The notes under the pieces are model-generated. The model was not told where the DNA came from and ran no database searches. It was given only the letters and a program-made list of their open reading frames with translations. Shown here piece by piece: positions 31,189 through 61,834 of a stretch of DNA of 64,000 nt (its first letter is position 1; each line of letters begins with the position of its first letter). Source of the stretch: Candidatus Nomurabacteria bacterium (GTDB lineage: Bacteria; Patescibacteriota; Minisyncoccia; Phycocordibacterales; UBA9973); contig JAHFNS010000002.1 in assembly GCA_023267215.1 (NCBI GenBank), positions 32,149 through 96,148 on the forward strand, written 5' to 3'. A program made the position numbers and the translations under genes.

Positions 31189-34125
31189 CTACTTATAAAT
31201 CTCTGCCATTTTGCAATACTCACATTCAGTATTTTTACCGTAAGAATTATAATTACAAGGTCTGTTGATCCATCCGCCTTCTCTTAAAAGAGAATCATAG
31301 TCTTTAATATCTTCTACTAGTAAAACGATTTGCTCTGGTTGTATTTTTGTATTATAAAAAGCATCTTTTTTATCTTTAGCCTCCAAAAATTCCAATCTAG
31401 ATTCAGAAACTTTTACTTTCCATTTAGGACTTTGTTCTAAAAGATAAGAATACATGGAAAGCTGGCGCATTAAGTTGCTCATTCTACCCTCTTCATTCAT
31501 TTTTTCTATTTCGCTTTTCTTTTTAGCACTACCAGTTTTAAAATCTGTCACTCTTATATTTTCTTTATCCAATTTTTCTATTAAATCAATTTTTCCATAA
31601 ATATTCAAATGTGGAAAACGGTCATCTGTTATAGACACCGGCTGTTCATTTTCTCTATCTTTATTTATATCTCCTAAACGATCATCCATCCATTTCAAAA
31701 CAATTTGTAATGCTTCTTTATCTTCTCCTACAATATCAGTTATTTCTTTTTTTGTTATTTTCTTGTTTTGTTTTAAGATATAGTCGATGGCTTTATGCAC
31801 TCTATCACCCACCTCTAAGCTTTCACTCTTCGCTTCTGGTAATTGAAGTAAATTTCTGAAATACCATTTCCAAGGACATTCAAAAAAATTATTAAGCAAA
31901 GATACTGAGACTTTACGTTCCTCATATTCATTACTTACTAATTTTACTAATTCTTTCAAACCCATACTTTCATGTTTCCAGTCTTTCTTTTCTATATATG
32001 CTTTAGGATTGTGGGCAAGAATTATTTTTTCTGTTTCATCAGCATTTTGTTTAGAAAATATTTCATCGGGAAGATCCCTAATAATGTAAGCTAGTTCTAG
32101 CTCTGCCCCAGTATAAGAGTGCAGAGCGTACGAAATTATACAAAATCTTTTCGCCCGAGTAATAGCGACATACAATTCTCTCTTGGCTGTCTCAATATCT
32201 TTCTTTTCAATCTTTTCTAAAATAGACTCGGGCAATGTGAAGGCTTGTTTCTTGCCAGACATCAACGATTTCTCATTCATGTGAGCAATAAAAACTGTAT
32301 CAAATTCTAAACCTTTAGAGCCATGCAAGGTAAGAACCTTTACTCCTTCATCAGCAGAAAACACAGCAAGTGGTATATGTTCTCCATAAGCTTCTAAGCG
32401 TTCAATAAAATTTACAAAACTCTTAAGGGTAAGTTTTTTATTTCTTTCACTTTGAGATAAAGCTAGATGTAAAAATGTTCTTACGACTTCCACTCTCTCC
32501 ACAAGCTCCTCGTGATTTTTCACATTAGTAAGAAAAAAGTCGTCTGCTATTTTTTGAACGATACTGTAGACTTTCATATCTTTAGATAGAAGAAGCCAAG
32601 AACGTAATTTGTTAAACCAATTTTCGACAGGAGAATCAATTTCAAAAAGACTTTGTTTGTTATCTTTTGCTTCTAAAGAAATACTTCTCATATTATTTTC
32701 TCTGGCAAATTTATGCGCTAAGATCGGAGGAATATTTGAAAATTTATCAAATATGGATTCTGCTATAGTAACACTATCATAAGGATCAGAAATGATTTTA
32801 AAAATTCGTAATAGTGCTATAGTTTCTTCTTTCTCAAAAAAATCTATTGAAATATTGGCAGATATAGGAACACCCATATCTCGTAAAATAGAAATTGCAC
32901 TGCGTACCTGCTTGTTTTTTGGCACCAATATAGCAATATGATTTGGGTCTATGCCAGATTTTATTTTTTCTTTGATTTCAATACCACAAGAAATAATCTC
33001 ATCTCTTTCATACGAAGCTTCAACGAGACGAATAGGATACTCTTCCTTACTCTGACTTTTTAATTTCTCGGAATTTACTTTACTCTCTAGTAATACATGT
33101 GAAGCGTCCAGAATGACTTGGGTAGATCTATAATTGTCTATCAAGGTAATCAATTTTGCTTTACCAAAATAATTTTTAAAACCTTCAAAATAAGCAAGAG
33201 ATGCACCTCCAAAACCATAAATGAGCTGACGATCATCCCCTACCACAAATATATTCGGCATATCGACATCACCCCAGACAACCTTTAAAAATTCATTTTG
33301 TACACCACTCGAATCTTGATGTTCGTCAATTAAAACATATAAATATTGCTCTTTGATGTTAGCCTTTACATCTTCCGATATTTCTACTATACGTACCAAA
33401 TTTTCTAGGATATCATCATAGTCTAAAAATTCTTGTTCTTTTTTTGCCTTCTCATAAAGTTCATAAAACTTTACAACTTCCAGTGTTCTGTTTAATCCTT
33501 CTATTTTTTTAATTATATCTTTCTTCAGTTCTCCTTTTGTCTCTCCCCTTGAAGAAATACTATTAGGATCATTTTCCAATTTTTTTATTTCTTCATTTAT
33601 TTGATCTCTAAAAAACTGAGGAGTCATACGTTCACGCTTCAAAAGAGAAATTAGTGATTTTAAATCAAAAAAATACTTTGAGGAATCGCCTCTAGGACGA
33701 ATATATTGCCAGTCGTTTTCTTCTAAAATGCTATCGCAAAGTGTAATGGCATCTTTTTCGTCAAGCAATTTGGGTGGAGAAATGAAATCTAAAATAGCAT
33801 AATTCTCTTCGAGAATTTTCATCCCAAAACTATGGAAAGTAGAGATGTTTACCTTTGAACTTTCTTTGCCAATATAGGTACGCAATCTCTTTTTCATGGC
33901 AGTTACACCTGCGTTCGTAAAAGTAAGACACAAAATACCATCAGATTCAGTAGTACCTTTTTTTAGAATATTACCTATTCTTAAAGCTAATATTTGAGTT
34001 TTACCTGTGCCTGGACCTGCTACAACCATCACTGGACCGTCTATAGTATCCACAGCTTCTTTTTGGGCCTTATTAAGCTTCTTGTATTCTTCTTCAAATA
34101 TATTATTATCTTTAGTCATTAACAT
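31189..34125 (-). CDS. UvrD/AddA-like SF1 helicase fused to C-terminal PD-(D/E)XK RecB/Cas4-like nuclease with Cys cluster
   Basis: Walker A AGPGTGKTQ, UvrD motifs; C-terminal D..DFKTG..QLSMYSYLL (QxxxY) and CNYNSYGKNTECEYC; no adjacent addB-like partner. Confidence 0.7.
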   Translation of the reverse strand: MLMTKDNNIFEEEYKKLNKAQKEAVDTIDGPVMVVAGPGTGKTQILALRIGNILKKGTTESDGILCLTFTNAGVTAMKKRLRTYIGKESSKVNISTFHSFGMKILEENYAILDFISPPKLLDEKDAITLCDSILEENDWQYIRPRGDSSKYFFDLKSLISLLKRERMTPQFFRDQINEEIKKLENDPNSISSRGETKGELKKDIIKKIEGLNRTLEVVKFYELYEKAKKEQEFLDYDDILENLVRIVEISEDVKANIKEQYLYVLIDEHQDSSGVQNEFLKVVWGDVDMPNIFVVGDDRQLIYGFGGASLAYFEGFKNYFGKAKLITLIDNYRSTQVILDASHVLLESKVNSEKLKSQSKEEYPIRLVEASYERDEIISCGIEIKEKIKSGIDPNHIAILVPKNKQVRSAISILRDMGVPISANISIDFFEKEETIALLRIFKIISDPYDSVTIAESIFDKFSNIPPILAHKFARENNMRSISLEAKDNKQSLFEIDSPVENWFNKLRSWLLLSKDMKVYSIVQKIADDFFLTNVKNHEELVERVEVVRTFLHLALSQSERNKKLTLKSFVNFIERLEAYGEHIPLAVFSADEGVKVLTLHGSKGLEFDTVFIAHMNEKSLMSGKKQAFTLPESILEKIEKKDIETAKRELYVAITRAKRFCIISYALHSYTGAELELAYIIRDLPDEIFSKQNADETEKIILAHNPKAYIEKKDWKHESMGLKELVKLVSNEYEERKVSVSLLNNFFECPWKWYFRNLLQLPEAKSESLEVGDRVHKAIDYILKQNKKITKKEITDIVGEDKEALQIVLKWMDDRLGDINKDRENEQPVSITDDRFPHLNIYGKIDLIEKLDKENIRVTDFKTGSAKKKSEIEKMNEEGRMSNLMRQLSMYSYLLEQSPKWKVKVSESRLEFLEAKDKKDAFYNTKIQPEQIVLLVEDIKDYDSLLREGGWINRPCNYNSYGKNTECEYCKMAEIYK

Positions 34126-55121: not shown

Positions 55122-55901
55122 ATGAGAATAGTTATAAAAGTTGGAACTCAGGTCATAGCGAGTAAAAATGGACTTGATCAAAAAAAGATAGCGAAACTTA
55201 CCAAGGAAATTTCTTTTTTGATAAAAAAAGGGCACCAAGTGGTTTTGGTTTCCTCTGGCGCTATCGGCGCAGGATTGCCAAGTGTCCCCTTCACCAACCC
55301 ACATAGGAAAAAAATTGCTGCCGCTATCGGACAACCTATTTTAATACATGATTATTACCGCGAAGCTAAAAAATATAAAATCTCTATTGGTCAAATTTTA
55401 ATTTTAAGTAATGATTTCACCAACCCTGAACGTTTCAAAAATTTAGTTTCCAATATGGAAGCAATGCTCTCTCATAAAATTTTGCCGATTATTAATGAAA
55501 ACGATGTGATGAAGGGAGAAGACTTAACTATCGGAGACAATGATATATTGGGCGCCAAAGTCGCTGTCGGCCTTAAGGCAGATAAACTCATAATTTTGAC
55601 CAATCAAAATGGATTACATACTTGCAACCCTGATCATAATGAAAATGCTAAACTTATTAAAGAAGTTAAAAATATCAATTCTAAGATCGAAAATCTCTGT
55701 TCGGTAGATAAATCAGATTTGGGATTAGGAGGAATGATTTCAAAAGTTTCTGCTGCTAAATATGCCACAAGTCACGGAGTGGAAACATTGGTAGGCAATG
55801 GGAAAGAAAAAGATATAATCATTAAAGCCTTGGGAAAAGATTTTCCAGGCACAAGGTTTATAGCTCCTGCTTCGCTAAAGCCACGCAGGACAGAAAAATA
55901 A
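55122..55901 (+). CDS. proB: glutamate 5-kinase (no PUA domain)
   Basis: amino-acid-kinase fold VIKVGT..VVLVSSGAIGAG, GDNDILGA motif. Confidence 0.8.
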   Translation: MRIVIKVGTQVIASKNGLDQKKIAKLTKEISFLIKKGHQVVLVSSGAIGAGLPSVPFTNPHRKKIAAAIGQPILIHDYYREAKKYKISIGQILILSNDFTNPERFKNLVSNMEAMLSHKILPIINENDVMKGEDLTIGDNDILGAKVAVGLKADKLIILTNQNGLHTCNPDHNENAKLIKEVKNINSKIENLCSVDKSDLGLGGMISKVSAAKYATSHGVETLVGNGKEKDIIIKALGKDFPGTRFIAPASLKPRRTEK

Positions 55902-55902
55902 T

Positions 55903-56652
55903 ATGAATATAACAATTATAGGTTACGGAATAATGGGTAAAGCCATAGCTAAAAATCTTTCAAACGATTCTTCAATCAAAATTTTTACTGTTGATGTAGA
56001 TAAAAAAGATTTGAGTGGAATAAAAAAATCTGATTTTATAATTTTAGCAGTCAAGCCTCAAGACGCACCCAAGACAATAAAAGAATTGAAGGATTATGGA
56101 ATAAATAAAAACACCATAATAATTTCAATTATGGCAGGTTTTCCAATCAAAAAAATAATTAATCTTTCTGATTGTAAAAAAGTAATAAGAATGATGCCAA
56201 ATTTAGGATTATCGGTAGGGGTAGGCATAGCGGCTTGGAAACAATTAAATTTATCAAAACTAGAAATAAAAAAATCTACAAATTTTATAAACAAAATTAC
56301 AGAAAATTTTGAAGTACAAAATGAAGATGTATTAAATAAAATAACAGCCCTCTCTGGTAGCGGACCTGCATATTTTTTTCTTCTAGCAGAATACTTAACA
56401 AAAGCCGGAGAAAAAATAGGACTGACAAAAGAACAAAGTAAAAAATTGGTAGGAAAAACATTTTTAGCTTCTGCCCTACTTAGTAAAGATGCTGATTATT
56501 CTATGTTAATAGAGAAAATCGCTTCCAAGGGTGGCACTACAGAGGCTGCTTTAAAAGTTTTCAAAAATAAAAATTTAGAGAAAACTGTGTTAGAAGCTGT
56601 CACTTCCGCTTATAAAAGAGCAAAAAAACTTTCAAAAGCTCCGCTTAAGTAA
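55903..56652 (+). CDS. proC: pyrroline-5-carboxylate reductase
   Basis: N-terminal Rossmann IIGYGIMGKAIAKNL, C-terminal P5CR dimerisation region (GGTTEAALKV). Confidence 0.8.
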   Translation: MNITIIGYGIMGKAIAKNLSNDSSIKIFTVDVDKKDLSGIKKSDFIILAVKPQDAPKTIKELKDYGINKNTIIISIMAGFPIKKIINLSDCKKVIRMMPNLGLSVGVGIAAWKQLNLSKLEIKKSTNFINKITENFEVQNEDVLNKITALSGSGPAYFFLLAEYLTKAGEKIGLTKEQSKKLVGKTFLASALLSKDADYSMLIEKIASKGGTTEAALKVFKNKNLEKTVLEAVTSAYKRAKKLSKAPLK

Positions 56653-56668
56653 TTCCCTAAGCGGAGCT

Positions 56669-57940
56669 TTGGGGAAAATAACAATGAATAAAAAGATTCA
56701 AAAACAACTACATAATGTAAAAGAAGCATCCAAGTCATTTGGACTTTTAACACACACAAAAAGAAATTTGATTCTAAAAAATCTGAAAGTAGAATTGTTA
56801 AAAAACAAAAAAGAAATCATAAAAACTAACGCAAAAGACTTAAAAAAAATTAATAAAGAAAGCCCCCTGTACGACCGTCTTCTCTTGGATGAGACACGCA
56901 TAGAAGGTATGGCAAAAGAAATTGAAAGTTTAATAAAAATGAAAGACCCAGTCGGTGAGATTTTTGATTGTAGAGAAAATCTAGGTTTAAAAATCTGCAA
57001 AAAGAAAGTACCGCTCGGAGTCATCGGTATTATCTATGAATCAAGACCAAATGTGACGACAGATGTATCTGCTATTTGCATCAAATCAGGGAACGCTATT
57101 ATTCTGAAAGGTGGCAAAGAAGCGAGAGAAAGTAATTTGCTACTTTGTAAACTTATAAAAAATGCTCTGGTCAAAGCTCATGTAAGTCCAGAAATAATTC
57201 AATTTATTGATCCAAAAATAAAAAATAGTGTTTTAGATATAATCTCTGCTAATGGTTTGATAGATGTTGTCATCCCTCGTGGAAGTGCAAATTTAATAAA
57301 TTTCATAAGAGAAAATACTACAGTCCCTCTCATAGAAACTGGTGCTGGAGTTTGTCATACATATGTGGATGAAAGTGCAAAACTTTCAGAATCAGCTGAA
57401 ATTATTTTTAATGCAAAGACACAACGCCCAAGCGTCTGTAATGCACTCGACACACTGCTCGTACATAAGAAAATAGCAAAAGAATTTTTACCAAAAGTAG
57501 CCAAACTTTTAGTAGAAAAAAATGTAGAAATATTTGCCGATCCTGAAAGCCATAAAATTTTAGAAAATATTTATCCAGAAAATCTTTTGCAAATTGCCAA
57601 AGCAACAGATTTCGGACGAGAATTTTTAAGCCAGAAAATGTCTATCAAAATAGTTCCAAATATTGATGAGGCTATAAAATTTATTCAAAAATATTCTTCC
57701 AAACATTCTGAAGCAATACTGACAGAAAATAGAAACAATGCTGAAAAGTTTTTGAATGAAATAGATTCAGCTGTTGTTTATACCAATGCTTCCACCCGCT
57801 TCTCTGATGGTGCTGTTTTTGGTCTCGGTTCGGAAATAGGTATCTCAACTCAAAAAATCCATGCCCGTGGCCCGATGGGTCCATCCGAAATGACAACTTA
57901 TAAATGGATCGTCACCGGAAACTACAATACTAGAAAATAA
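56669..57940 (+). CDS. proA: gamma-glutamyl phosphate reductase
   Basis: ALDH-fold with catalytic Cys region (RPSVCNALDTLLVH), 423 aa. Confidence 0.9.
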   Translation: MGKITMNKKIQKQLHNVKEASKSFGLLTHTKRNLILKNLKVELLKNKKEIIKTNAKDLKKINKESPLYDRLLLDETRIEGMAKEIESLIKMKDPVGEIFDCRENLGLKICKKKVPLGVIGIIYESRPNVTTDVSAICIKSGNAIILKGGKEARESNLLLCKLIKNALVKAHVSPEIIQFIDPKIKNSVLDIISANGLIDVVIPRGSANLINFIRENTTVPLIETGAGVCHTYVDESAKLSESAEIIFNAKTQRPSVCNALDTLLVHKKIAKEFLPKVAKLLVEKNVEIFADPESHKILENIYPENLLQIAKATDFGREFLSQKMSIKIVPNIDEAIKFIQKYSSKHSEAILTENRNNAEKFLNEIDSAVVYTNASTRFSDGAVFGLGSEIGISTQKIHARGPMGPSEMTTYKWIVTGNYNTRK

Positions 57941-57954
57941 ACAGGCAAGGCCTG

Positions 57955-59001
57955 TTAAATTTTGTTTTCTTTTATTTTTCTTTTCAATTTATACGCATTC
58001 CCATGACTAAGCATCCCCAAATAAGATTGTATAGTATTTGGTTTGGGATTTTTGTTAATATTCCTAAACATCCTTCTTTTTGTAGCAGTGCGTAATACTC
58101 TATGCTTCGGAAAATGCACCCAACCAAGAAAATCTACACCGGAGTAGATTGTTTTAATAAATACTTTATCTGGGTGCATATTTAACTTTAGTTTAGTCTC
58201 TAAAAATTCTTTCATTACTTTCAGTGTGTTTTCTAAATATTCTTTATCGTCTGAAAGAACAACAAAATCATCTGCATATCTAATGTAATATTTTACTTTC
58301 AGTTTATGTTTTATATATTGATCAAATTCATTCATATAGATATTTACTAAAAGTTGAGAAGTTAAATTACCAAGTGGTAAACCTTTCAATGACACATTCT
58401 CTGCCATGGCAGAAAGTGTGTCATTTTGTATATATACACTATCACTGATATCTGTATTTGTGTGGAAGCTATTTATTATTTGTTCTAATAACCAGATAAT
58501 GTCTTCATCTTTTACATGCTTTGTCAGAATATCTTTCAAAATATTGTGATCTATGTTTGCAAAGAATTTTCTAATATCGCATTTTAATACAAAACAAGTT
58601 TTAGCGCTGTTTTTAGAAACAATTCTTATCATTTGCCTAAATCTGTTTATAGATCTATGAGTTCCTTTTTCTATTCTGCAAGAATATGAATCATAAATAA
58701 ATTTACTATCAAAATAACCATAGAATTCTTGATAAATTAAGTGATGAAGTAATCTATCTCGCACCATCGCCTTATGAATTTGTCTCGGTTTTGGGTCAGA
58801 AATATTAAAAGCTTTATAACCACCATGCACATAAGTTTTGTTTTTTAAATCAATATATAAATCAAAAATATTATCCATCAATTTAGATTGAAACAATATC
58901 ACATCATTTTTCTTTTTCTTGTCATGTAAAAACTCCTGCCAAGCTTGAAGTAATTTTTCTATAGTTATGATATTATCGTATGTATGAATAAATCGTCTCA
59001 T
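57955..59001 (-). CDS. diversity-generating retroelement reverse transcriptase
   Basis: RT motifs incl. YADDFVV; DGR-specific LPLGNLTSQLLVNIYMNEFD motif; C-terminal SYLGMLSHGN. Confidence 0.9.
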   Translation of the reverse strand: MRRFIHTYDNIITIEKLLQAWQEFLHDKKKKNDVILFQSKLMDNIFDLYIDLKNKTYVHGGYKAFNISDPKPRQIHKAMVRDRLLHHLIYQEFYGYFDSKFIYDSYSCRIEKGTHRSINRFRQMIRIVSKNSAKTCFVLKCDIRKFFANIDHNILKDILTKHVKDEDIIWLLEQIINSFHTNTDISDSVYIQNDTLSAMAENVSLKGLPLGNLTSQLLVNIYMNEFDQYIKHKLKVKYYIRYADDFVVLSDDKEYLENTLKVMKEFLETKLKLNMHPDKVFIKTIYSGVDFLGWVHFPKHRVLRTATKRRMFRNINKNPKPNTIQSYLGMLSHGNAYKLKRKIKENKI

Positions 59002-59002
59002 A

Positions 59003-59374
59003 TTGGTATCACCCCCCCCCGCAGCGCCTTCAGCGCTTCTAAAAGCAAAAATCGCTTACTCTTTTTGGTTTAAAATATATAATGATTTTCCAAAGGCACA
59101 TCGCTATATTTTAGGTGAAAAAATTGGAGATTATTTTCTGGCTCTTTTAGAAAACATTTTTATTTCAATATATCTACCACCAGAACAAAAAATACAGAGG
59201 CTCACAATAGCTATTTCTAAACTAGATGGTGTAAAGTTCTTCTTACAAATTGCTTGGGAAAACAAATGTATTCCTAGTGAAAAATATTCTACTCTTTCAG
59301 AACTTTTAAATGAAATCGGCAGAATGCTGGGTGGTTGGAAAAAAGGACTTGAAAAGAAAACCCCTCAGAAATAA
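59003..59374 (+). CDS. avd: Avd-like accessory variability determinant (TIGR02436 four-helix-bundle family), opposite strand to RT/TR/VR; TTG start 1 nt from RT start codon
   Basis: KIYNDFPKAHRYILGEKI..LLENI and IPSEKYSTLSELLNEIGRMLGGW match the four-helix-bundle family pattern (..fPkeEky.l.sQi.. / yiseeeYeel.eel.eisrMLngL). Confidence 0.65.
   Translation: MVSPPPAAPSALLKAKIAYSFWFKIYNDFPKAHRYILGEKIGDYFLALLENIFISIYLPPEQKIQRLTIAISKLDGVKFFLQIAWENKCIPSEKYSTLSELLNEIGRMLGGWKKGLEKKTPQK
59012..59020. repeat. C9 homopolymer tract at 5' end of avd ORF / RT-avd divergent junction
   Basis: read directly (ACCCCCCCCCG); encodes PPP after TTG start. Confidence 0.9.
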
Positions 59375-59390
59375 TCCAAGGAGAAAGATA

Positions 59391-59508
59391 TTGTTTCTGA
59401 AGCAGACACCATTGCCAGCATTCCACTCATTGTCGGGATTGACCTTGTTCACGTTGACGTTGAGCTGACCATCATCGTTGCGATACGCGTTAAAGCGGTA
59501 CAAATTGT
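59391..59508 (-). repeat. DGR template repeat (TR), sense on minus strand
   Basis: 118-nt repeat vs 59820-59937 at constant offset 429; all 15 mismatches have A on the minus strand in this copy. Confidence 0.85.
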
Positions 59509-59818
59509 GGAAATAATCATCTTTTTCACTGCCAGCCTAAGCGCAATTAAATGCCAGAGACTGTGCTGTATTTTATTTGGGACATAAAAGTCCACCAATT
59601 ATTTCCACCAACATTTTCTTTTTTGTTTTAGAAATATAACTGCCCTCTTATGTAAGCCTTGGCCGACACAACTCTCACAAATTATTTTTCTAGAATCCCC
59701 ACTCTCAAGCCGTGACCGAAGAGTTATTAAGAATTCCTTCTTTATTATATATTAAAAAAAGAAAAAGGGCCTAAGACACAAAGTATCTAAGGACCCTTTT
59801 TTATTAAGAAACATAGTT

Positions 59819-60496
59819 TCAGTTGCTGAAGCAGACACCATTGCCAGCACTCCACTCATAGTCGGGATTGACCCTGCCCACGTCGACGTAGAGCTGACCA
59901 CCATCGATGCGATACGCGCGAAAGCGGTACAAAGTGTCAACACCATCAACTTTAAAGTAGACGATGACACCTGTTCCTTTTATATCAACTTCACCGAAGA
60001 GAATAACTTTACAGATTATAGAAAGTCCTTCAAGATAAGAATAGACTTTTTTAATTCCAGTATTTTCAGCTTCTTCAAGAATCTGTTTGTGAGTTAAGTT
60101 GGGAATAAACCGATACACTACAGTAATAAAGCCTTTAGGTATATCAAGAACCGTTTTTCCGTTAAAGTAATTCCAAAGATCTTTATCAATGAACGGAACG
60201 ACATTTTTTAATCTAGCTTCTCTTTCGAGAACTGATTTTAGAAAAGTCATCACTGTATCTTCACTGACTGTAAATAACTCTGGACTTTTAGGAATAGTAA
60301 GGGTTTTTGTTTTTTGAAAAAGTTTTGAAACAAATTCTTTGACTCCCAAAAATTCAAGAAGTTCAGGTTTTGTAAAGTGATTAACCTTGTTATGCGCCCT
60401 GAAACGCAAGTCATTATTTGCAACATTCTGACGAATTCTCTTTATGAGACTGTCAACGCGCTTGTTGCCACGTGCGGTGTTGTTTTTGTTTGGCAT
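59819..60496 (-). CDS. DGR target protein (225 aa, basic N-terminus, no signal peptide) with C-terminal VR
   Basis: last ~38 codons lie in VR (..YRFRAYRIDGGQLYVDVGRVNPDYEWSAGNGVCFSN); imperfect hairpin plus T-run immediately downstream (59765-59802). Confidence 0.8.
   Translation of the reverse strand: MPNKNNTARGNKRVDSLIKRIRQNVANNDLRFRAHNKVNHFTKPELLEFLGVKEFVSKLFQKTKTLTIPKSPELFTVSEDTVMTFLKSVLEREARLKNVVPFIDKDLWNYFNGKTVLDIPKGFITVVYRFIPNLTHKQILEEAENTGIKKVYSYLEGLSIICKVILFGEVDIKGTGVIVYFKVDGVDTLYRFRAYRIDGGQLYVDVGRVNPDYEWSAGNGVCFSN
59820..59937 (-). repeat. DGR variable repeat (VR) at 3' end of target gene
   Basis: cognate of TR; substitutions only at TR-adenine positions (N->R/I/Y/D/G/S, D->G, K->R at protein level). 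Confidence 0.85.
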
Positions 60497-60646
60497 TTTG
60501 CACCATCCTATAGTTTTTTAAGAACTTGAGCCGATTTTTCTGTGTTTTTTACAGAACGGAACGGTTTCTAACCTTTGTTATATTATATACCTTTTTAACA
60601 AAAAGTCAAGAGGAAAAATATTTCATAACAAGCTATAATAAAAAAC

Positions 60647-61834
60647 ATGAAATATTGTAAAGATTGCGAACCAGCACAAGAAAATCATTTTGTAGCCTAT
60701 TTATCAGTTGTTTTGGATTATATTAGCCAACCACTTTTTAATATCATGGAATTGCTTTTTAAAAGCACAGCGGAAGCAATCTCTTCTAGGGTTTCTATTC
60801 CATTCATGCAATTAATGGTTTTTTTAGGGTTTGCTCATTTTTCAGAACGACCTGACAGTAAAGACACATTGCGTACAAAATGTTTTTGGGAAGAAGCAGA
60901 GAGACGCGGAATAAAAATGCGAGAATTTAAAATGGGTTTAATTAAAGATTCTTTTATTGCCGAATACAAAGGAAAAAGAATAAGTTTTGATGGTCTACCT
61001 CGAGGAGAAGAGGGAGAATCTGGAGCTATTGATTGGATGGACAATAAAGGTATCATGAAAATAAAATTTCTAAAAGAAGATTTGCCTGTTGCTCGTGGCG
61101 GAGTGGCTTTTACAAAAAAGAAGGCACTTAAAATTTTTAATGAAATTACTAAACCCGTGATCACGAAACCAAATTTGGGTTCACGTTCTCGTCATACTTT
61201 GATACATATAGATACACCTGAAAAATTAATCTATGGTTTTGAAAAAGCAAAAAAGCTTTCTCCTCTCGTCGTGATAGAAGAAGAATTGCGAGGATATCTT
61301 TTTAGAGCAACTTTAGTAAATAGTAAATTAGTCGGCGTTGTGAGACGCGACCAACCAGAAGTGACAGGTGACGGAATCCATACTTTGCAAGAATTGATGG
61401 ATAAAGAAAATGAGCGCGCCGAAAGAAAAGGACCTATATTCCATAAAATAATTATTGACCCCGATGCAGAAGTAGAATTAAAACGCGAAGGAATTAAAAT
61501 GGAAGATATTCCAGCCGCCCACAAGGTCATCACTTTTTCTCAAAAGACTAGTCGTGGCATTGGTGGGACAACGACAGAAGTAACAGATTTAATCCATCCG
61601 GAAAATGTTAAGATGTTAGAAAAATTAGGAGCCTATTTGAAAGATCCACTCGTTGGCGTTGATCTCATAATAGAAAAGATAGAAGAACCTTGGTACACCG
61701 AACAACATTGCGGAATAATAGAATGCAACAGTCTGCCATTTATAGATTTGCATCACTACCCTCTTTTCGGAAAACCAAACAATGTAGCCGGTAAACTCTG
61801 GGACTTTGCAATGCCTGAATCTAAAGGGAAATAA
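60647..61834 (+). CDS. ATP-grasp domain protein (cyanophycin-synthetase/RimK-like ligase)
   Basis: ATP-grasp pattern: ITKPNLGSRSRHTLI, EEELRGYLFRATLV, GIIECNSLPFIDLHHYP (Mg/ATP-binding E-x-N near C-term). Confidence 0.55.
   Translation: MKYCKDCEPAQENHFVAYLSVVLDYISQPLFNIMELLFKSTAEAISSRVSIPFMQLMVFLGFAHFSERPDSKDTLRTKCFWEEAERRGIKMREFKMGLIKDSFIAEYKGKRISFDGLPRGEEGESGAIDWMDNKGIMKIKFLKEDLPVARGGVAFTKKKALKIFNEITKPVITKPNLGSRSRHTLIHIDTPEKLIYGFEKAKKLSPLVVIEEELRGYLFRATLVNSKLVGVVRRDQPEVTGDGIHTLQELMDKENERAERKGPIFHKIIIDPDAEVELKREGIKMEDIPAAHKVITFSQKTSRGIGGTTTEVTDLIHPENVKMLEKLGAYLKDPLVGVDLIIEKIEEPWYTEQHCGIIECNSLPFIDLHHYPLFGKPNNVAGKLWDFAMPESKGK

Follow-up and report, generated by a model that had tools for sequence, protein, structure and literature searches.

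A complete diversity-generating retroelement with reversed avd in a Nomurabacteria chromosome, and a covarying region 5' of its template repeat

Introduction

The first survey of diversity-generating retroelements (DGRs) in CPR bacteria is said to be that of Paul et al. in 2017. Among CPR DGRs, 90% have architecture B3, defined as TR-(avd)-RT with avd reversed (Wu et al. 2018, NAR 46:11, PMC5758913). The target proteins of CPR DGRs are typically without transmembrane (TM) segments or known domains, and the question whether they are truly non-membrane-bound has been left open (Roux et al. 2021, Nat Commun 12:3076). A further reference system is the DGR of Bordetella phage BPP-1 (mtd-avd-TR-brt), in which the transcript has the order avd-TR-Sp-brt.

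Here we describe a DGR from Candidatus Nomurabacteria, contained in a 64-kb stretch of DNA (the window; 64,000 nt, 32% GC). The element is complete: reverse transcriptase (RT), accessory variability determinant (Avd), template repeat (TR), variable repeat (VR) and target are all present, together with the adenine signature. It is a further example of a DGR type already known as abundant among the ultra-small bacteria of the CPR. We consider it very probable that the locus is an intact chromosomal CPR/Patescibacteria DGR of the Nomurabacteria/Paceibacterota type with architecture B3, operating by the TR RNA/RT-Avd mechanism proposed below.

Results

Locus order and genomic setting

The cassette is arranged as target(VR)-TR-(avd, opposite strand)-RT (Table 1), and this B3 order was present in 13 of 13 cassettes compared (the window and 12 relatives). 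The initial annotation had described a complete DGR with an adenine-specific TR/VR signature; all five parts were indeed found, with every mismatch at a TR adenine. It had also called the orientation of avd, opposite to RT, TR and VR, unusual. The strand is correct, yet this arrangement is the CPR norm (Wu et al. 2018), and no architectural difference from the CPR set (B3, Wu et al. 2018; DGR clade 2, Roux et al. 2021) was seen. With CPR DGRs the locus shares the reversed-avd order, host lineage, chromosomal location, C-terminal VR and a small target without TM segment, signal peptide or known domain.

The genes proB-proC-proA adjoin the cassette on one side, and the setting is chromosomal. 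Homologues that carry names, including those of the RT, belong to Nomurabacteria, Paceibacterota or Parcubacteria. There is no second VR in the 64-kb window, and PADLOC returned only generic RT matches.

Table 1. Features of the DGR cassette, in window coordinates.
Feature	Position	Strand	Remarks
Promoter-like site of target, TTGACT-16-TATAAT	60582..60609	-	11/12 consensus matches; consensus match only
Target gene, 225 aa	59819..60496	-	residues 1-51 basic helical module; residues 52-225 compact α/β domain with VR
Variable repeat (VR)	59820..59937	-	last 38 codons of target; GCAAC at 59826-59822, proposed 3' limit
VR 3' flank	59767..59818	-	conserved A[AG]CTTTG-type motif just past stop codon, then hairpin 59796-59767 and T-run
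TATAAT-like box, putative -10 of TR RNA promoter	59744..59749	-	TATAAT/TATACT/TATATT conserved at this position in alignments
Structured TR RNA leader, ~235 nt	59509..59745	-	directly 5' of TR; covariation
Template repeat (TR)	59391..59508	-	homology proper 59393 to 59508; 3' end GAAAC at 59397-59393, invariant
9-bp hairpin (59383-59361) then UUUUCUUUUC	59351..59383	-	starts 8 nt past TR; overlaps last avd codons
avd, accessory variability determinant, 123 aa	59003..59374	+	from TTG at 59003; opposite RT/TR/VR
Junction hairpin AGCGC-TGAAG-GCGCT (RT strand)	59023..59037	.	adjoins homopolymer
Poly-C(+)/poly-G(-) tract, 9 nt	59012..59020	.	between RT ATG and avd body; PPP in avd ORF
DGR reverse transcriptase, 348 aa	57955..59001	-	LGNLTSQ (motif 4) and YADD; ATG at 59001

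TR and VR differ at template adenines

TR and VR align in register with a 429-nt offset and differ at 15 of 118 nt. The pair had been placed at 59391-59508 and 59820-59937, with A in the RT-proximal copy at each of the 15 differences, and VR in the last ~38 codons of ORF 59819..60496; coordinates, counts, strand and the 38 codons were all confirmed. Counted by TR base on the minus strand, 15 of 15 mismatches fall at A (A>G 8, A>T 4, A>C 3), which, with A at 36 of the 118 TR bases, has a chance probability of ~2e-8. The claim that all 15 differences reflect adenine mutagenesis holds for 12 of them (chance ~4e-7), but not for the remaining three. Position 59396 (AGA vs AGC) is a fixed difference between GAAAC in TR and GCAAC in VR, shared by 11 of 13 related elements in differing reading frames. 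The mismatches at 59391 and 59392 fall outside the homology end.

The adenine bias was retained when more copies were compared, with TR adenines accounting for 232 of 235 TR/VR mismatches over 13 related elements. Read in frame, the TR contains 6 AAC and 5 AAT codons (11 AAY), and codon positions 1 or 2 hold 32 of the 33 As in frame. In the family alignment, the columns that vary coincide exactly with these AAY codons. Downstream, the flanks of TR and VR diverge from each other and each is conserved, that of VR even among elements whose targets come from different families; an orphan target (L006) retains it as well. Judged from sequence, GAAAC/GCAAC and the distinct flanks are compatible with an IMH/IMH* pair.

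The RT and Avd belong to DGR families

The DGR-specific motif and YADD previously ascribed to the RT were both read directly in the ORF. The RT matched Pfam RVT_1 (E 4.5e-22), and its best solved relative was 8ub7_A (328 aa, GIPIGSLTSQ; E 4.6e-36, 128 bits), which we take to be the bRT of Bordetella phage. In contrast, no group II intron or retron RT scored above 51 bits, which places the enzyme with DGR RTs. The top NCBIfam model was group_II_RT_mat (124.6 bits, cut-off 300), which covered only RT positions 28-288 of 353. More than 8000 RT homologues were found at E<1e-30. In their source records, RT homologues are annotated as 'retron-type' or 'group II intron RT'.

An Avd-like gene on the opposite strand was borne out on the plus strand by Pfam bAvd (PF22296; 57 bits, cut-off 40). 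The NCBIfam model DivGenRetAVD gave 64.8, below its cut-off of 80.

A covarying leader directly 5' of the TR

The ~235 nt preceding the TR comprise two hairpins (one of them two-level), an A-rich linker and a three-way domain of 110 nt, which is closed by a 12-bp helix abutting the TR 5' boundary. RNAalifold on 10 elements predicted 67 pairs, and compensatory changes were seen in 39 of these. In the alignment 95.4% of cells were paired, compared to 42-48% when the partners were slid, and double changes occurred at 38 of 59 pairs, compared to 10-16 with slid partners; none of 500 shuffles reached the observed values. Immediately upstream of the TR, the RNA pairs with other parts of the leader rather than with sequence downstream, and this pairing covaries strongly. 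The single-sequence fold of the TR RNA was not more stable than shuffles (z -1.2); the support for the leader structure is covariation only.

A model of the leader domain (R1) located it directly 5' of the TR in three held-out elements (E 1e-14 to 5e-22). It detected no leader beside the orphan targets L006, L009 and L014-L016, nor in L013. A weak R1 match elsewhere in the window (32650-32756, E 0.07) was taken as chance. The leader had no match in Rfam, and neither RT-10 nor another RT motif of Rfam was found, even at E up to 5. A leader 17-mer, CAAATAAWATACAGCAC, had 29 matches in IMG/VR viral contigs, none with RT, Avd or more leader similarity; these were dismissed because a rough estimate gives that number by chance.

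The TATAAT-like box near 59749 is the putative -10 element of the TR RNA, judged by its conserved position. Another promoter-like site (59708-59681) was not adopted as the TR promoter; it lies inside a covarying leader hairpin.

A hairpin follows the TR

The hairpin just past the TR was flagged by a terminator scan. Its stem covaries over 13 elements, and the GUUUU after it is invariant despite a differing avd reading frame. By analogy, the hairpin could be the counterpart of the Avd-binding stem-loop of BPP-1. A covarying hairpin and U-run directly after the TR argue that much of the TR transcript would end there.

A conserved repeat at the avd/RT junction

The C9 tract at the junction is the only G or C run of at least 7 nt in the window. 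A C/G run of 7-11 nt occupies the same junction position in 12 of 13 related elements, and one element (L054) has (TG/CA)12 in its place. The adjoining hairpin is kept in 12 of 13 elements (absent from L022). Its stem covaries (AGCGC/GCGCT, AGCACC/GGTGCT, AGTACC/GGTACT), and the Avd residues encoded there vary along with it. A general role of the poly-G run as RT ribosome-binding site was rejected: the spacing between run and ATG varies from 6 to 30 nt, and in L054 (TG)12 stands in place of the run.

The only in-frame canonical start of avd is the TTG, from which reading passes through the C9 tract; no obvious ribosome-binding site is present. The initial annotation had noted start codons 1 nt apart, a distance that is true for this TTG (59003, plus strand) and the RT ATG (59001, minus strand), but the TTG is not conserved in relatives. 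The placement of the avd start codon is uncertain. In six elements, including that of the window, an upstream ATG lies exactly one nucleotide out of the Avd frame, and in all six the distance from this ATG to the repeat end equals 1 mod 3 despite differing spacers and tract lengths. To yield Avd, translation from the upstream ATG would need either a +1 shift of the ribosome on CCC-C or a transcript that has lost one C. The junction hairpin and the poly-C/G tract may form a gate on Avd synthesis; alternatively, the tract could be an ordinary on/off contingency switch.

The target is a small protein without export signal

The basic N-terminus attributed to the target corresponds to its helical module, which is swapped between relatives. 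The maximal Kyte-Doolittle value over 19 residues was 1.45, with -0.55 at the N-terminus, and an N-terminal hydrophobic segment is absent in 79 of 85 target family members, a few having one. The size of 225 aa and the lack of signal peptide and TM segment stand as described, but not the view that they are unusual, as they are the CPR norm (Roux et al. 2021).

Neither the target nor its 85 relatives matched Pfam domains, including FGE-sulfatase (PF03781) and DUF1566. A profile search against PDB sequences returned nothing below E 0.18, and Foldseek of the confident target model against the PDB nothing with E<0.1. The target had no sequence-profile match to the variable proteins of C-type-lectin/FGE fold (Mtd, TvpA 2y3c, AvpA, TaqVP).

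Sequence variation among close relatives

Over 4 kb the cassette is 100% identical, VR included, in three assemblies (the window, L001 and L002). Two near-identical proteins, P0008 and P0270, have two residue differences only, both in the VR, a pattern that indirectly favors ongoing VR diversification in the family; another pair of loci (L017 and L018) differs by 1 nt, which is not in the VR. P0274, with 10 differences from P0022, was rejected as a VR variant. It is an assembly chimera jumping from VR to TR, as its Asn residues are those encoded by the TR and its sequence continues into the TR flank.

Discussion

Alternative explanations

That the locus is no DGR at all, and instead combines an ordinary duplication with a group II intron or retron RT, could be argued from the top rank of group_II_RT_mat in NCBIfam and from the annotations of the homologues. 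However, that model covers the RT only partly and scores far under its cut-off, 8ub7_A outscores all group II and retron RTs, the locus includes a bAvd gene, and no group II intron RNA was found at the Rfam gathering score. Moreover, adenine-only mismatches are repeated in 12 other elements. We consider this explanation extremely improbable and, as far as sequence analysis permits, already refuted. A recently silenced or rarely active relic, its parts intact and its VR frozen, would fit the identical VR in three assemblies and the dependence of avd on a TTG that reads through a slippery C9; in addition, a 5.8-billion-protein collection contained no close VR variant, and the target's cluster there has one member. 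Yet assemblies are consensus sequences in which minority variants are hidden, all ORFs are intact with catalytic motifs present, the non-coding elements agree with those of relatives, and the TR/VR differences are all of adenine type, with no sign of the other changes expected from drift. A relic is thus unlikely.

The same DGR could also work with a longer RNA, modeled on the BPP-1 transcript, in which the TR transcript runs through antisense avd to the RT and the hairpin serves as Avd-binding stem-loop. GUUUU would then pair with AAAC of GAAAC as a template:primer duplex, and the pyrimidine tract CCUUUUUUCC (~59340-59349) with the poly-G before the RT, looping out antisense avd. Stem-loops of ~9 bp occur just downstream of the TR in 207 DGRs of a survey that covered CPR among other lineages (Handa et al., bioRxiv 10.1101/2023.10.23.563531), AAAC and GUUUU, both invariant, flank the hairpin, and the tract:G-run pairing was proposed by RNAalifold. 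The window also shows no evident promoter of the RT's own, and the RT ATG lies directly beside the avd start. On the other hand, covariation from TR to RT is small (-1.9 kcal/mol vs -12.9 for the leader), the proposed long-range pairs are invariant and draw no support from covariation, the (TG)12 of L054 would not pair with the pyrimidine tract, and the sequence adjoining the TR 5' end pairs with leader sequence, with strong covariation, rather than downstream. We regard read-through as possible but clearly the less probable course, and favor a discrete TR RNA that would end after the hairpin.

Proposed mechanism

For an element with such a discrete TR RNA we propose the following sequence of steps. 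A minus-strand RNA of ~400 nt would start from the TATAAT-like box and comprise the ~235-nt structured leader, the 118-nt template, the invariant GAAAC and the 9-bp hairpin followed by GUUUUCUUUU. The RT, together with Avd, would copy the template to cDNA and misincorporate opposite adenines, nearly all at positions 1 and 2 of the 11 AAY codons and a few other codons. The cDNA would then take the place of the last 38 codons of the 225-aa target. GCAAC in the VR as opposed to GAAAC in the TR, together with the conserved VR flank, would set the 3' limit of transfer. The 5' limit would be the base of the leader's 12-bp closing helix, which plausibly blocks the RT like the 'cPRT Stop' duplex of BPP-1. 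The variable residues would be displayed on C-terminal strands of a minimal FGE/C-type-lectin-like domain, and the target probably binds a changing ligand.

More generally, CPR B3 DGRs might use a rearranged DGR RNA, in which the 5' ~235-nt leader would serve as scaffold for protein binding and for stopping the cDNA, in contrast to the 3' spacer of BPP-1. A slippery or hypermutable repeat (poly-C 7-11 or (CA)12), situated where avd begins and adjoining the divergent RT start, might gate Avd synthesis. This extension to the whole type is speculative, and we hold it only tentatively.

Comparison with BPP-1 and significance

The element shares with the BPP-1 DGR the RT motifs IGxxxSQ and YxDD, Avd, adenine-specific mutagenesis at AAY codons, and a VR at the 3' end of the target. 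Both have a stem-loop right after the TR (9 bp and 8 nt past the TR here, ~9-11 bp in the BPP-1 type), with Avd binding putative in the present case, and a duplex at the TR 5' edge that could stop cDNA synthesis. In contrast to BPP-1 (Handa et al. 2018; bioRxiv 2023.10.23.563531), the covarying ~235-nt structure lies on the 5' side of the TR, and the helix abutting the TR 5' end uses leader sequence, not the downstream Sp. A structured Sp of the BPP-1 type is absent here, the TR-to-RT interval being antisense avd with little covariation. Furthermore, the element is chromosomal, not phage-borne, and its target is no tail fibre.

As one more example among thousands of known lineage members, the element will not surprise specialists. 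More value lies in the comparison, which maps the non-coding features of the most common type of CPR DGR: a covarying leader RNA absent from Rfam, a one-base GAAAC/GCAAC rule marking the 3' limit of transfer, a helix marking its 5' limit, and, where avd meets the RT gene, a slippery repeat that is conserved. In the DGR literature compared, we found neither the leader RNA nor the GAAAC/GCAAC rule nor the junction repeat described, and the structured leader and slippery repeat may be previously undescribed. For the cellular location of such targets, at the membrane or elsewhere (Roux et al. 2021), the confident model of a target without export signal provides a starting point. Should the mapped non-coding features hold up, they would show that the scaffold of a DGR ribonucleoprotein can lie on the opposite side of the template, and that recoding or phase variation can throttle a hypermutation machine.

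Adenine-specific differences between TR and VR

The initial annotation had proposed a complete diversity-generating retroelement (DGR), based on a 118-nt repeat pair differing only at adenines. Aligning the template repeat (TR) with the variable repeat (VR) confirmed this pair. Offset by 429 nt, the copies align in register and differ at 15 of 118 positions. The TR carries A on the minus strand at 15 of 15, where the VR has G in eight cases, T in four and C in three. With 36 adenines among the 118 TR bases, such a result would arise by chance with a probability of ~2e-8. Note that the mismatches at 59391 and 59392 are beyond the end of the TR/VR homology, and that the one at 59396 (TR AGA, VR AGC) belongs to a fixed difference, GAAAC in the TR versus GCAAC in the VR. 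Removal of these three positions left 12 genuine A-to-N changes (chance ~4e-7). The adenine bias held when more copies were compared: 232 of 235 mismatches fell at TR adenines in 13 pooled elements (the window and 12 related cassettes). No second VR was found within the 64-kb window.

In the frame of the 225-aa target protein (ORF 59819-60496), the TR contains 6 AAC and 5 AAT codons, with 32 of 33 in-frame adenines at codon position 1 or 2. The TR- and VR-encoded peptides differ at 10 residues, all within 188-216, and the hypervariable columns of the family alignment are exactly the TR AAY codon columns. The GAAAC/GCAAC difference was found in 11 of the 13 elements, irrespective of reading frame or encoded residue. 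Such recurrence is compatible with an IMH/IMH*-like mark of direction, rather than with random mutagenesis. An A[AG]CTTTG-type motif (59806-59818) directly 3' of the VR stop codon is kept even between unrelated target families.

Features of the cassette and its flanks (window positions)
Feature	Position	Strand	Description
Proline biosynthesis cluster	55122-57940		AA_kinase, P5CR and Aldedh genes, proB-proC-proA-like; one flank of cassette
RT	57955-59001	minus	LGNLTSQ and YADD motifs
avd	59003-59374	plus	Pfam bAvd, 57 bits (cut-off of 40 passed)
G9 tract	59020-59012	minus (RT strand)	Poly-C on avd strand; 3' of hairpin, RT ATG 10 nt further
Junction hairpin	59037-59023	minus (RT strand)	Stem covaries
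TR	59391-59508	minus	118 nt, RT-proximal
GAAAC (TR) vs GCAAC (VR)	59393-59397 vs 59822-59826		One-base fixed difference, from comparison of related elements
TR RNA leader	59509-59745	minus	~235 nt, structured, covarying
VR	59820-59937	minus	118 nt, distal
395-aa ORF	60647-61834		No Pfam match; other flank of cassette

The reverse transcriptase and the lineage of the cassette

Among solved structures, the RT best matched the 328-aa RT of entries 8ub7-8ube (E 4.6e-36, 128 bits), a chain that contains GIPIGSLTSQ and that we take to be Bordetella phage bRT. Matches to group II intron and retron RTs reached at most 51 bits, and the NCBIfam group II model scored 124.6 bits, far short of its cut-off of 300. 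Thus, as initially proposed, this is a DGR RT rather than a group II intron or retron RT.

More than 8000 RT homologues were found at E<1e-30, the best 120 of them at least 64% identical; those with names belong to Nomurabacteria, Paceibacterota or Parcubacteria. For the target, 26 close homologues were identified, including one in a Candidatus Nomurabacteria MAG, and almost all of the 124 representatives (at 50% identity) returned by a profile search are ~90-300 aa long. We fetched 12 further independent cassettes, three via the target (L003, L008, L012) and the others via the RT (L017, L019-L023, L053-L055). Every one had the order target(+), TR, avd(-), RT(+), and in the first ten elements VR-to-TR spacing was 313-377 nt and TR-to-RT spacing 391-411 nt. 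The neighboring genes vary by element (proline biosynthesis in the window, elsewhere ribosomal proteins, PNPase, murB and others), and the cassettes are therefore chromosomal, in varied sites.

The reversed avd and the lack of a transmembrane segment or signal peptide in the target had both been flagged as unusual. However, TR-(avd)-RT, with parentheses denoting the reverse strand, is architecture B3 of Wu et al. 2018 (PMC5758913), and targets of DGRs in the CPR (Patescibacteria) are typically without transmembrane or known domains (Roux et al. 2021, Nat Commun 12:3076). Both features therefore follow the rule of the lineage. The DGR assignment itself was correct, and the cassette is a typical CPR B3/clade-2 DGR, not an unusual variant.

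L006 (5001-5800), L009 and L014-L016 have a target-family gene without TR, avd or RT within the fetched 3.5-5 kb per side. The GCAAC motif is still retained in L006, as are the hairpin and the conserved flank; a DGR located elsewhere in the genome may diversify this target in trans, or the cassette may have been lost. In L013 (4163-4986), leader-like sequence begins downstream of the target, and the contig ends without a match to the TR or the 110-nt leader domain; truncation or rearrangement of the cassette may explain this, as may a misassembly.

The target protein and its variants

The target had no match in Pfam, NCBIfam or PADLOC. A full-length structural model was mediocre (pLDDT 73.9), with the first 50 residues poorly defined. 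Modeling residues 52-225 with an 84-sequence alignment gave a very confident structure (pLDDT 97.1, pTM 0.92) with the element order β, α, α, short α, β, α, α, β, β, β, β, in which the VR forms the final three strands plus loops. Foldseek against the PDB returned no match below E 0.1 for this model. Structural comparison gave matches to FGE-like domains (scores: SenA 4.9, PvdO 4.8, SUMF2 4.5, EgtB 4.4, OvoA 4.2), the DGR variable protein TvpA (4.8 across 118 residues) and dozens of animal C-type lectin-like domains. Judging from the model, the target fold is probably a minimal, very divergent member of the FGE/CLec class; the family is uncharacterized and without a Pfam entry.

The N-terminal ~50 residues vary between target subfamilies, which exchange this module for unrelated ones. 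In the window it is basic (60335-60484, residues 4-53) and 82% identical to the N-terminus of P0025/P0275 (also P0026), members of another small CPR protein family (~220 aa) whose C-terminal half differs from that of the target. An N-terminal hydrophobic segment is absent in 79 of 85 relatives and in the window's target. A few family members, such as P0066 and P0082, have a hydrophobic, TM-like segment there, and the domain may be membrane-tethered in some organisms.

With all ORFs and motifs intact and zero non-adenine TR/VR differences, the element is regarded as predicted functional. Three assemblies, the window plus two others, share the cassette with 100% identity over 4 kb, and the protein collection contained no close VR variant of the window's target. 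At the family level, the only hint of recent diversification is the pair P0008 and P0270, proteins identical except for two VR residues. P0274 (313 aa, P0022 cluster) was rejected as a VR variant: its contig jumps from VR to TR and continues into the TR flank, an assembly chimera. Such chimeras can pass for VR diversity.

Structured RNA on either side of the TR

Within the cassette, conservation is highest in the 310-nt 'spacer' from VR to TR, above that of the protein genes, and this spacer remains alignable even among elements with unrelated targets and TRs. The leader is ~235 nt long in all elements and comprises two hairpins (one of them two-level), an A-rich linker and a three-way domain of 110 nt with a 12-bp closing helix. 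On 10 elements, RNAalifold predicted 67 pairs, of which 39 show compensatory changes. Among the 59 local pairs, paired cells made up 95.4%, compared to 42-48% after sliding the partners by 1-3 columns, and two-sided changes occurred in 38 pairs, compared to 10-16 when slid. None of 500 shuffles reached the observed pairing values. Built on 10 elements, a covariance model of this 110-nt domain recovered it in three held-out elements (E 4.5e-22, 1.6e-17 and 1.5e-14), each time ending at most 6 nt from the TR start; within the window its sole match was 59503-59613. The leader matched no Rfam family, even at E up to 5, including motifs RT-1 to RT-19, of which RT-10 is the spacer of BPP-1.

TR/VR homology starts exactly at the base of the 12-bp closing helix. 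The 'cPRT Stop' of BPP-1 is a duplex immediately 5' of the TR; by analogy, the closing helix would limit cDNA synthesis.

A 9-bp hairpin with a covarying stem lies 8 nt past the TR, followed by GUUUU and further Us. The GUUUU is invariant despite avd being read in different frames across it. This arrangement looks like an intrinsic terminator. The hairpin could also correspond to the Avd-binding stem-loop that a survey of CPR and other lineages found just after the TR in 207 DGRs (Handa et al., 10.1101/2023.10.23.563531); the two putative roles are not exclusive. The remaining TR-to-RT interval, antisense avd, showed little covariation.

A repeat tract at the avd/RT junction

The G9 tract is the sole G or C run of at least 7 nt in the 64-kb window (32% GC). 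A 7-11 nt run occupies the same junction site in 12 of 13 elements, with (TG)12 instead in L054. A hairpin plus poly-C/G tract (or (CA/TG)12) lies directly upstream of the RT ATG in the window, L003, L008, L012, L017-L023 and L053-L055, the hairpin being absent from L022. On the avd strand, the tract falls at the very beginning of avd, next to the divergently oriented RT start. Three elements have a canonical avd start 3' of the tract. In four, the window (TTG 59003), L008, L023 and L054, an in-frame canonical start precedes the tract, which is then translated (PPP in the window, HTHTHTHT in L054). The other six have no in-frame canonical start whatsoever. In six elements including the window, a frame that begins with an ATG 24-31 nt upstream stays open as far as the tract. 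It is always one nucleotide out of frame, with ATG-to-tract plus tract lengths of 28+9, 24+10, 28+9, 28+9, 27+10 and 31+9, each sum being 1 mod 3.

This pattern suggests, as a hypothesis, either programmed slippage or recoding, or a contingency switch (phase variation). Slippage could take the form of a +1 shift on CCC-C, or of an RNA polymerase product shorter by one C. Tract length is invariant among all assemblies of a given element, which counts against an active switch. Our literature search found no publication tying DGRs to homopolymers or phase variation.

In conclusion, three parts of this cassette merit following up: its conserved leader RNA, the GAAAC/GCAAC difference between TR and VR, and the repeat tract where avd meets the RT gene.
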